This document shows, piece after piece, positions 10,623 through 12,911 of a DNA stretch of 13,236 bases (position 1 is the first letter of the stretch; the number at the start of each line of letters is the position of its first letter). The DNA lies in the NCBI GenBank assembly GCA_016839805.1, contig JAEOTO010000018.1, forward strand, positions 1 through 13,236, written 5' to 3'. The stretch comes from Candidatus Hermodarchaeota archaeon. Its GTDB lineage: Archaea > Asgardarchaeota > Hermodarchaeia > Hermodarchaeales > Hermodarchaeaceae. The translations under genes were made by a program, and so were the position numbers. Below the pieces are notes generated by a model. That model was not told where the DNA came from. It saw only the letters and a program-made list of their open reading frames with translations, and did not search any database.

Positions 10623-10776
10623 CCTACCTCTTTCATTAATAGCAAAACAGCTCTGCTCGTGACAAAAGCTCAAAAATGGCACTGTTTTCCCAACCTCCCA
10701 GTTAGAAAGACTTTAAAAGCTACACCAAACATTGGCTCTGCACCCCATGACCGGAAAGTACAAGGTGAGCTACCTA

Positions 10777-11628
10777 GTGAAACTGTCTCTTCGCATGAGC
10801 ATTTTACTGATTGCAGCGTTAATTTTAGTTTCAGCCTTTGGTTTTAGCGCTTATTCGACGGTATCGGCTCAGCCCCCTCCGATTCAAATCAACGATATTG
10901 TGGTGCCTGAAGAAGTCGCTCAAGACGAAAATGGACAGGTACAGGCAACCATAATCAATATCCAAAACCAGTCATTTGATGGTTTTGCTAAATTCTATGA
11001 CGATTTAGATGAAATTAGTAGCTATGATCCTTCTGATCCCTTCGAGCCCAGATTAAACTTTACAATCGCAGCGGAATCAGAACTAGATCTTGTTCTCCCT
11101 TACACAGTTGCTTACAACGCGACAATCGGGTTACACATCGTCACGTTCGAGATTGATGTTGGTGGGTTTTCGTTCCTCTTTAACCAATACGAAGTCACTG
11201 TCATTCCAGTAGCCTCCATCTCTTCAATCGTTCCTGGGCATGTGTTTACTCAGGCGCAAGTGGGAACTCTTCTTGTCTCTATTGAAAATCATGTAGATCA
11301 TCTGGTAAATGTGAGCCTGGATGTCTTTGGACCGAAATTTGTGAATGCATCAGAGGAGGTTGAACTCTCACCTGGGCAGAATAATATCGTTATCCCGATT
11401 TTGAATAACGCCACTCACGTCTACGATTTTGGTATTTCTCCAGTGAATGTGTCTATGTATTATAATGATGAGCTGATTGGTAGCCAAGTAATTCTAGTCC
11501 CTGTTGACATGACTCTACCCAACAAAATCTTGGCAGTTATCTTACCAGCAAGCATCTTCCTCATTCTTGTTGTGTTCTATGCGTTTCGAAAGCGACGACG
11601 AGTTCGACAGGCAGCAACCAGTGAATAG
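10777..11628 (+). CDS. Secreted, C-terminally membrane-anchored surface protein (beta-rich, Ig/CARDB-like)
   Basis: Signal peptide ending ...STVSA|Q, an acidic beta-rich body with several N-x-S/T sequons, and a C-terminal TM helix followed by RKRRR. Start probably GTG 10777 (SD AGGTGA 10763-10768); the ORF track starts at 10732. Confidence 0.8.
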   Translation: MKLSLRMSILLIAALILVSAFGFSAYSTVSAQPPPIQINDIVVPEEVAQDENGQVQATIINIQNQSFDGFAKFYDDLDEISSYDPSDPFEPRLNFTIAAESELDLVLPYTVAYNATIGLHIVTFEIDVGGFSFLFNQYEVTVIPVASISSIVPGHVFTQAQVGTLLVSIENHVDHLVNVSLDVFGPKFVNASEEVELSPGQNNIVIPILNNATHVYDFGISPVNVSMYYNDELIGSQVILVPVDMTLPNKILAVILPASIFLILVVFYAFRKRRRVRQAATSE

Positions 11629-11684: not shown

Positions 11685-12317
11685 ATGACCCAACCGCCTG
11701 ATGAATGGGAGAGCCTGCGGCAAGAAATTTGTGAGTGTCATCAATGTCCTCTAGCTAAATCGCGATCGCAGGCTGTTCCAGGGGTGGGACCCAATGATGC
11801 TCAGCTCATGTTTATTGGTGAAGCCCCAGGTCGTCAGGAGGATATCAAAGGAGAGCCTTTTGTGGGAGCCGCAGGTCAGCTCTTAACGAAGTTATTGGAA
11901 CAGGTGGGAATCAAAAGGCAGTCAGTGTTTATCTCTAATGCTGTAAAATGCCGACCACCCGAAAACCGACAACCTACCCGAAGTGAACGTGCTGCCTGTC
12001 GTCCATTCTTGGATCGTCAACTCCAGTATATTCAACCACGGGTAATTGTTCTAGTTGGACGAGTTCCAACGGAGACTCTGCTGGAGACCTCAGTGCGGAT
12101 GGGTGAGATGCATGGGCGAGTCTATCATCGCAACGGTAAGACTTTCTTTGTGATGTATCACCCCGCAGCAGGCCTCTACAATCAAACCCTTGTTCCGACC
12201 TTGGAAGAGGACATGCAGAAACTAAAGAAACTACTACATAGTGACCCAGCGCCAGCAGAGGAGCGGGAACAAGGACAACTACCCCTGAGTGAATTTTTCT
12301 CTGAAGAAAAGAAATGA
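11685..12317 (+). CDS. udg: Family 4 uracil-DNA glycosylase ([4Fe-4S]) with C-terminal PIP box
   Basis: CHQC, IGEAPG..ED..G.PFVG.AG, KCRPP.NR.P...C and YHPAA. Tail QLPLSEFF. Start probably ATG 11685; the ORF track starts at 11658. Confidence 0.93.
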   Translation: MTQPPDEWESLRQEICECHQCPLAKSRSQAVPGVGPNDAQLMFIGEAPGRQEDIKGEPFVGAAGQLLTKLLEQVGIKRQSVFISNAVKCRPPENRQPTRSERAACRPFLDRQLQYIQPRVIVLVGRVPTETLLETSVRMGEMHGRVYHRNGKTFFVMYHPAAGLYNQTLVPTLEEDMQKLKKLLHSDPAPAEEREQGQLPLSEFFSEEKK

Positions 12318-12334
12318 ACAACAACTTAAAGATG

Positions 12335-12796
12335 CTATTCTTCATCTTCGAGGGCGGTTTCAAGTTGTGCACGCCGTCGGGCAAGGAATGATTGGAGCTC
12401 ACCTTGCATTTGCGCACGAATACCAAAACCACCAGTTGCAGCCATGGGAGAGGTCGGCGTTCTTGGTGGTGGTGCAGCCATACCTGGTGGCACACTGGGT
12501 CCTGCAGGACTTCCAGGCGGCATTCCAGGGCTAGGTGGTGGCGTAAGAGGAGCTTCAGCAGCATCAGGAGTTCCAGCGGTTGGAGCTGTGGCGCTTGTTC
12601 CACCGATACGGAGCACTGTATCAACTTGAGTTTCAATCTTGGATAGCCGAGTCCTCATTTCGTCGAGTTGCTTTTCTAAAGCGCCAACCCCGTTGAGAAA
12701 AATTGTAGCCACTCTTTCAAGGACTTGAGCCAGTTCTTCAACTTTTTTAGACATATCCTTTTCCGCTGCTAGAAAATCAAAACCACCAAATGCCAT
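12335..12796 (-). CDS. Hypothetical coiled-coil / proline-rich protein with C-terminal amphipathic-basic helix and acidic tail
   Basis: 153 aa ATG ORF with a TATA-like TTTTAAAC about 30 bp upstream. It fills the gap between udg and the methyltransferase, and its modular composition is protein-like. Confidence 0.85.
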   Translation of the reverse strand: MAFGGFDFLAAEKDMSKKVEELAQVLERVATIFLNGVGALEKQLDEMRTRLSKIETQVDTVLRIGGTSATAPTAGTPDAAEAPLTPPPSPGMPPGSPAGPSVPPGMAAPPPRTPTSPMAATGGFGIRAQMQGELQSFLARRRAQLETALEDEE

Positions 12797-12911
12797 TCTC
12801 TATCGACTTCACTGTAGATTAATTAGTTTAAAACCTTGTGGGGTATGAGGGCTATTCAAAGCAGTTTTTAGAGAAAACCAATGAATAACCCATTCTTACC
12901 GTTATTATACA

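Follow-up and report, generated by a model that had tools for sequence, protein, structure and literature searches.

Family A, a pan-Asgard group of small proteins with a conserved and modular C-terminal helix that may dock to actin

The 13,236-nucleotide stretch of DNA analysed here (the window) contains a gene of an undescribed pan-Asgard protein family, called family A below. Its product has three parts, a long N-terminal helix, a Pro-rich arm and a C-terminal helix. This layout is conserved across Asgard archaea, and the C-terminal helix is reused there as a module on other kinds of protein. We propose that the family A protein would be a small cytoplasmic adaptor: its N-terminal helices would pair into a coiled-coil oligomer, and a flexible Pro-rich arm of about 55 residues on each chain would present a short, conserved, amphipathic docking helix, which would serve as a short linear motif and plug into a partner conserved among Asgard archaea. 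Since such an oligomer displays several copies of the helix, it would act as a multivalent tether. This architecture, a coiled-coil oligomer with helix copies carried on flexible arms, is very probably right. The complete reading, a coiled-coil adaptor with a docking helix and with actin as its likeliest partner, is the best explanation overall and is offered tentatively.

The gene and the layout of its product

The window is archaeal DNA, and the genes near the family A gene encode TBP, CDC48, a PadR regulator, a uracil-DNA glycosylase and a methyltransferase. The open reading frame at 12335..12796 on the minus strand is a real gene, translated into 153 aa followed by a TAG stop. The translation includes all the segments quoted in the original prediction, which had described the product as a candidate VASP/WASP-like actin regulator. 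The gene stands alone; it is convergent to the glycosylase gene and divergent with respect to the methyltransferase gene. A TATA-like box read from the sequence, TTTAAA at 12827..12832 (minus strand), lies about 33 nt upstream of the ATG and would fit an archaeal promoter of the gene's own.

The N-terminus carries an acidic/aromatic motif, GGFDFL (residues 4-9; 12770..12787, minus strand), which is near-invariant in Thor-type members. An F-x-x-hydrophobic counterpart is present in other lineages in an alignment of 39 diverse members, and an FDFL-like motif also lies inside another protein of the same genome, the family B protein discussed below. GGFDFL is a possible second short linear motif of the family A protein. 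A long helix spans residues 6-68 (12593..12781, minus strand), with an AlphaFold2 (AF2) pLDDT of 86-98, and is presumed to be a coiled-coil oligomerisation domain. The arm that follows (residues 69-123; 12428..12592, minus strand) is rich in Pro, Ala, Gly, Ser and Thr and is disordered, with a pLDDT below 50 and an AF2 disorder call that covers residues 69-120. Its length and sequence differ between homologues, and a PTSPM block is kept in Thor-type members only. The C-terminal docking helix (residues 124-152; 12341..12427, minus strand; pLDDT about 90) contains the conserved core I126-R142 (12371-12421, minus strand). The translation closes with the acidic end EDEE (residues 150-153; 12338..12349, minus strand); an acidic tail is found in Thor-type and some Loki-type members and is not family-wide. 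The AF2 model, made from the 39-sequence alignment, has a pTM of 0.32, and therefore gives no relative position for the N-terminal helix and the end helix.

Translation and model thus bear out the layout that had been read from the sequence, namely a coil-type helix, a Pro-rich linker, an end helix and an acidic EDEE. The two caveats attached to that reading were also sound. The longest proline run is PPP, and the 153-aa translation contains neither Trp, terminal or otherwise, nor LKKT.

Two further observations concern the surrounding DNA. The GC-rich proline-coding stretch gives rise to long spurious open reading frames, at 12289-12646 (plus strand) and 11974-12636 (minus strand) of the window. 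At another locus (L050) a simple ORF caller chose an opposite-strand frame over the real family A gene, which makes the family prone to mis-annotation. Between the PadR and glycosylase genes, a 298-aa frame (10732-11628, plus strand) begins and ends with hydrophobic segments and matches nothing in Pfam; its product is probably a secreted or surface protein.

A conserved family and a helix shared between carriers

Searches of Pfam, NCBIfam and PDB sequences with the family A protein gave no above-threshold match, only sub-threshold coiled-coil or low-complexity ones, and Pfam searches with the 39 members gave the same. The N-terminal coil draws generic coiled-coil matches in Pfam, all below threshold. 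In the ESM Atlas the only matches were to uncharacterised archaeal clusters of the Atlas itself. By a word-indexed search we obtained 61 homologues of about 150 aa each (48-95% identity), and those with a named source come from Thorarchaeota or Promethearchaeota. An exhaustive phmmer search of 1.84 billion representatives gave nine matches, made up of Asgard proteins, unnamed metagenome proteins and one collagen-like protein, a chance match and the sole eukaryotic protein in the result. The named distant members belong to Frey-, Sigyn- and Promethearchaeota, and a profile search brought in members from Odin, Jord, Lokiarchaeia and Hod. In phyletic distribution, a check suggested with the original prediction, the family A profile matches 237 of 301 sampled Asgard genomes and 78 of the 90 of high quality, mostly with one copy per genome. 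In these searches family A was found only in Asgard archaea, where it is near-universal; our search of the literature found no description of it.

Members are stand-alone proteins of 140-190 aa, and the 39 diverse ones share a constant order of parts: an N-terminal F-x-x-hydrophobic motif, a helix, a variable P/A/G/S-rich arm and the end helix. Residues E133 and L134 of the end helix are the sole invariant positions among these 39, and the helix is almost unchanged inside the Thor-type group. The reading as an actin regulator had been made to depend on conservation of the helix among homologues, and conserved it is. The arm is far freer. Loki-type members have true tracts of P5-P8, the Frey/Jord and f6 types have none (Asgard taxonomic families are given here by our own numbers, f1, f2 and so on), and the host protein stops at PPP, so polyproline is not a conserved trait. 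In f6-type members a Gly run comes at the end, followed by an almost FAB-like helix and an Arg cluster. When fusions of the N-terminal coil were sought among longer proteins, 177 matches were obtained; the 120 listed are all 141-186 aa long and include no fusion, and among these the coil is therefore not seen fused.

The end helix behaves differently, and its fusions surfaced only when the helix itself, not the N-terminal coil, was the query. Its first additional carrier, family B, was found by scanning the host genome for Pro-rich open reading frames with a helical tail. The gene lies on contig 21 of that genome (G000) at 227604-228242, plus strand (L061:6605-7243), and encodes 212 aa arranged as an N-terminal helix, an internal FDFL motif, a long Pro-rich arm and an end helix akin to that of family A. 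The protein has no Pfam match, and BLASTP detects no relation between it and the family A protein. With hhalign only the end helices of the two families align, over 25 columns (probability 82.7%, E 9.5e-6). Family B occurs in 129 of the 301 Asgard genomes when searched with a single-sequence query. The helix core common to both families reads hydrophobic-R-x-[E/Q]-M-x-x-E-hydrophobic-[K/Q/R]-x-hydrophobic. A joint A+B helix model finds the two proteins in the host genome (A best, at 25.8 bits and E 5e-6; B at 17.3 bits) and no other carriers there, and the joint profile finds nothing in the PDB. With its coil, its disordered Pro-rich arm and a C-terminal helix that follows the core consensus, the family A protein has the full make-up of a docking-helix adaptor.

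Other lineages carry the same helix on membrane proteins and GTPases. The arm and helix are found on multi-pass membrane proteins of 500-540 aa in family f21 and on a single-pass membrane protein in family f6, in each case as a helical region followed by the Pro-rich arm and the docking helix (L092:4565-6187, L093:4805-6316, L094:4641-6326 and L097:3207-4088). In five Lokiarchaeia genomes the helix profile recovers members of A and B plus weaker matches at the ends of 411-475 aa frames. Two of these frames were inspected, and both are Arf/RagA-like GTPases (Pfam Arf 3e-23, Gtr1_RagA 7e-23) whose GTPase domain is extended C-terminally by an A-like coil, a linker and the helix. They are 422 and 475 aa long and lie at L111:1480-2748 (minus strand) and L112:178-1605 (plus strand), in genomes G209 and G040. 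Each Loki genome has several Arf/RagA-like paralogues with such a tail. There are thus at least four carrier types of the docking helix in Asgard archaea.

As a separate observation, weak Pfam profilin matches of about 70 residues fall within 413-427 aa frames of Lokiarchaeia (for example G008:C43:19126-19335, G215:C53:23105-23320 and G134:C128:23615-23884); these share a length class with the Arf-like GTPases that bear docking-helix tails.

The simplest reading of an end helix reused in this way is that it would dock to a protein. The alternative that it is a membrane-targeting amphipathic helix of the MinD/FtsA-tail type, or else a PCNA-binding PIP box, is highly improbable. A C-terminal amphipathic helix with basic residues would suit either role, but the invariant Glu within its core would not. 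A membrane-targeting role is unlikely in view of those carriers that are membrane-embedded already, through one or many transmembrane segments. As for PCNA, Q131-L138 fits Q-x-x-L-x-x-F-L and the neighbouring gene encodes a uracil-DNA glycosylase, but that gene is convergent, and its position next to family A is not conserved. Position 1 is Q in three types alone, Thor, Frey/Jord and Hod; other types have M, N, T or L there. The aromatic pair is missing from f6-type members, and the pattern fails altogether for family B. The full PIP consensus, Q-x-x-[LIM]-x-x-[FY]-[FY], fits only those three types, and neither the whole family nor family B.

The PIP-box and membrane-helix readings, like the MIM1 reading discussed below, are rejected because their defining positions vary across carriers. 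We also tried the recently described actin-filament motif SFM, V-x-x-L-x-x-x-F-E (PMC13364712); it does not fit, position 1 being Q and position 9 being A. That a single helix can be likened to four or five classes of motif is a reminder that such likeness counts for little.

Since other carriers join this helix to a membrane anchor or an Arf/RagA-like GTPase, the role of the free form is probably to bundle, or to compete for, whichever partner those carriers bring to membranes.

Candidate partners of the docking helix

Actin is the leading candidate for the partner of the docking helix, although we regard it as possible rather than probable. By analogy, the helix would sit in the hydrophobic groove of actin as do WH2 motifs, the F-actin-binding segment (FAB) of VASP and the tail of arcadin-2, and the family A protein would function like a minimal Ena/VASP-type or arcadin-2-type regulator without belonging to those families. 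The original prediction had named actin and profilin of the host as prerequisites, and the host genome does encode actin paralogues, a profilin and two two-domain gelsolins.

Several findings favour actin. In family f9, family B is co-directional with an actin gene and two genes away from it; family B, a PIG-L deacetylase and actin (374 aa, 306 bits) follow one another on one strand (L099:3312-6027, genome G263). The last 17 residues of arcadin-2 bind the groove of crenactin (PMC5173319), and co-precipitation with Lokiactin in L. ossiferum recovered an ARF-GTPase (PMC13716822). To these may be added the FAB score given below, the FAB-like ends of f6-type members, the P5-P8 tracts of the Loki type, and the actin, profilin and gelsolins of the host. 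Other findings stand against it. The actin neighbourhood is found in one taxonomic family only, f9, and for family B rather than family A. The Lokiactin co-immunoprecipitation reported no protein of the docking-helix type (PMC13716822). Lineage f16 has a strong actin gene in five of five genomes and the docking helix in none of them. Finally, the RRR cluster is missing in family B, polyproline is not conserved, WH2 is unmatched and LKKT is absent. Co-occurrence with profilin is no guide here: the Pfam profilin model detects profilin in just 103 of the 301 Asgard genomes and is too insensitive for that purpose.

In f6 loci it is family A that has a PIG-L gene next to it (L041:9233-9925).

The original prediction went further and interpreted the protein by its likeness to Ena/VASP and WASP/WAVE proteins. 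This interpretation is supported in part: the layout, the conservation of the helix and the host's actin and profilin speak for it; a place in the Ena/VASP or WASP families is not supported. The FAB of human VASP comprises residues 259-278 (PMC10340426). We scored it against a weighted matrix of the 15 core columns of family A. The score is 14.0 bits, reached by 0.075% of composition-preserving FAB shuffles, and it is equalled by 8 unrelated open reading frames among the 2,357 of at least 100 aa in the host genome, about 1.2e-5 per scored window. Because those 8 unrelated frames score equally, the likeness is not evidence of homology, and caution is the stronger because the FAB motif is one choice out of a large pool of known helical motifs. 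The Arg cluster RRR, a hallmark of FAB, is absent from family B and is not in the core that A and B share. The proposed FAB likeness therefore appears to be a real but weak pattern over about 14-15 residues, at chance level for one proteome.

The domains that define Ena/VASP and WASP proteins gave no signal. EVH1/WH1 has no match at E<=10 in the family A protein or at E<=1 in the 39 members, and the N-terminus is one long helix. The C-terminal tetramerisation coil (VASP_tetra) has no Pfam match, the coil of family A being N-terminal. The suggested WH2 profile check was likewise negative, with no match to WH2 (PF02205) in the family A protein and none to EVH1, WH2 or VASP_tetra in the 39 members; no L-basic-basic-T/V follows the helix. 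Profilin-binding polyproline was defined here as runs of five or more Pro, and the family A protein has no such tract. The acidic end of a WASP/WAVE VCA region contains a conserved Trp that binds Arp2/3, and EDEE does not.

True homology or ancestry to Ena/VASP or WASP/WAVE would account for a shared parts list (an oligomerising coil, a Pro-rich region, a FAB/C-like helix and an acidic end), for the 14-bit FAB likeness and for weak sub-threshold Pfam CCDC53 matches in 4 of the 39 members. Yet the parts come in reversed order, with the coil at the N-terminus, the likeness of some 14 residues is within chance for one proteome, and the exhaustive phmmer search met no eukaryotic homologue among its 1.84 billion representatives. 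Homology already fails the sequence tests made; it is very unlikely, and close to untenable.

That the helix serves some other conserved Asgard partner, or folds back onto its own coil as a regulatory latch, is also a possibility, though a doubtful one. The protein would then be a trafficking tether unrelated to actin, and the partner might be a small-GTPase effector or regulator, or a trafficking protein of the BAR, longin or roadblock type. The coil precedes the arm in every carrier, in A, B, the membrane forms and the Arf fusions alike, and a heptad-like hydrophobic seam (-8, -4, 0, +3/+4, +7 and +11 from L134) recalls the partners in helix bundles. AF2, however, gave no confident joint placement of the two helices (pTM 0.32). 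The fusion of the helix to Arf/RagA-like GTPases agrees with a role in trafficking, as does the gene neighbourhood. Of 21 loci, 10 have a gene for a small GTPase no more than 9 kb away; this is weak evidence, given the great number of small GTPases that Asgard genomes encode. The direct neighbour seen most often beside family A is a gene for a VTT/DedA membrane protein, found upstream of it in f1, f2, f18 and f20 (L039:7986-8723, L050:9369-10211, L051:10587-11621 and loci L028/L029/L032). In f2, f18 and f20 it immediately precedes family A, in the same orientation; in f1, to which the host belongs, it is found about 0.8 kb upstream, past the window's end. In Loki and f6 loci the neighbours of family A are housekeeping genes. 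None of this indicates a specific partner.

Gene neighbourhood also raises the ESCRT system. In the manner of the C-terminal helices of ESCRT-III and IST1, the end helix could be a MIT-interacting motif with which the protein recruits or titrates Vps4 or another protein with a MIT domain, but we consider this distinctly unlikely. Both kinds of helix are C-terminal and stand behind a Pro-rich linker, and Loki genomes have up to 11 MIT matches alongside several helix carriers. In f2, f12, f14 and f20 loci, family A lies 4-8 kb from genes for Vps4, Vps25 and two Snf7 proteins. This proximity holds for 4 of about 12 families sampled, with unrelated MFS, SSB and UbiA genes between family A and the ESCRT cluster, and no ESCRT neighbourhood occurs in Thor, Loki or f6 loci. 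The f16 lineage has neither MIT (0/5) nor Snf7 (0/5), and it also has no family A, no family B and no helix (0/5), with actin in 5/5; this co-absence, however, concerns one genus with genomes 75-83% complete, and family f8 has MIT without a detectable helix. The MIM1 consensus is (D/E)xxLxxRLxxL(K/R) at the C-terminus of a Snf7-fold protein. Family A departs from it: when the two are aligned on their hydrophobic positions, the invariant Glu of the family stands in the place of the conserved Arg, and the family A protein has no Snf7 match in Pfam.

The f16 lineage may be without ESCRT altogether, as judged from five genomes (G021, G032, G051, G078 and G100) that are 75-83% complete and in which MIT and Snf7 went unmatched. 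These genomes have a strong actin gene and weak gelsolin-like matches.

We therefore rank the readings with actin first, another trafficking partner or self-docking second, ESCRT/MIT third and true VASP/WASP homology last. Within the actin reading there is a bolder version, which we think unlikely: that the docking helix binds Lokiactin and that its carriers, free A, B, the membrane-anchored forms and the Arf fusions, are the missing machinery by which Asgard archaea assemble actin or link it to membranes. If this were true, the Ena/VASP and WASP-family modules that combine a Pro-rich segment with WH2 or FAB would have had a functional precursor in these carriers, and might even have evolved from them. 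Actin filament nucleation and elongation machinery is "yet to be discovered in Asgard archaea" (PMC9433394). The Asgard actin regulators described are profilins and gelsolins only, plus co-precipitating ARF and BAR proteins (PMC9433394, PMC13716822). A near-universal, Asgard-only helix module on coils, membrane anchors and Arf-like GTPases is a testable candidate for that machinery, and either outcome would inform the origin of the eukaryote-style regulated cytoskeleton and of membrane remodelling.

Comparison with known systems

Small proteins of this general build exist elsewhere. The best Pfam match of the family A protein is baculovirus P10 (PF05531), which stays sub-threshold (E 0.0021; 18.9 bits against a cut-off of 29.8) and is confined to the coil, being of the generic coiled-coil kind. 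P10 is likewise small; its coiled coil is N-terminal, its middle rich in proline, and its C-terminal tail basic and cytoskeleton-associated. MIM1 proteins of the ESCRT-III/IST1 type, like family A, end in a helix carried by a flexible linker that is partly rich in Pro. They differ in having a Snf7 core and a conserved Arg, the place of which is taken in family A by the invariant Glu.

For actin binding, a further comparison is with WH2 (PF02205) and the WH2-like LKKT/LRRV motifs of Asgard gelsolins (PMC7444086, PMC9433394). Like WH2, family A has a short amphipathic helix followed by basic residues after a Pro-rich stretch. Unlike WH2, which forms a helix of three turns, its helix has five to six turns, and PF02205 has no match in the 39 members.

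Arcadin-2, the crenactin regulator of Pyrobaculum calidifontis, offers the archaeal parallel (PDB 5LY3; PMC5173319). It binds actin solely through a conserved helix of about 17 residues at its C-terminus; this helix occupies a hydrophobic groove of archaeal actin, and the helix of family A is likewise C-terminal and conserved, so that a similar seat on actin can be imagined. Arcadin-2 relies on a Trp, whereas family A has none. The arcadin-2 gene lies beside crenactin in the arcade cluster, and the family A gene has no actin neighbour.

The EVH2 region of Ena/VASP consists of a Pro-rich region, GAB, FAB (259-278) and a tetramerising coil (PMC10340426). Family A has counterparts in an oligomerising coil, a Pro-rich segment and a short amphipathic, basic helix; its hydrophobic pattern and the Arg cluster that follows recall the VASP FAB, and the f6-type relatives add a preceding Gly run. 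Unlike Ena/VASP, family A has no EVH1, GAB/WH2 or VASP_tetra, its coil is N-terminal instead of C-terminal, and its proline runs here do not exceed three. Kinship to VASP or WASP is not supported, but by analogy the family A protein would be a multivalent tether built like a miniature eukaryotic actin-assembly factor.
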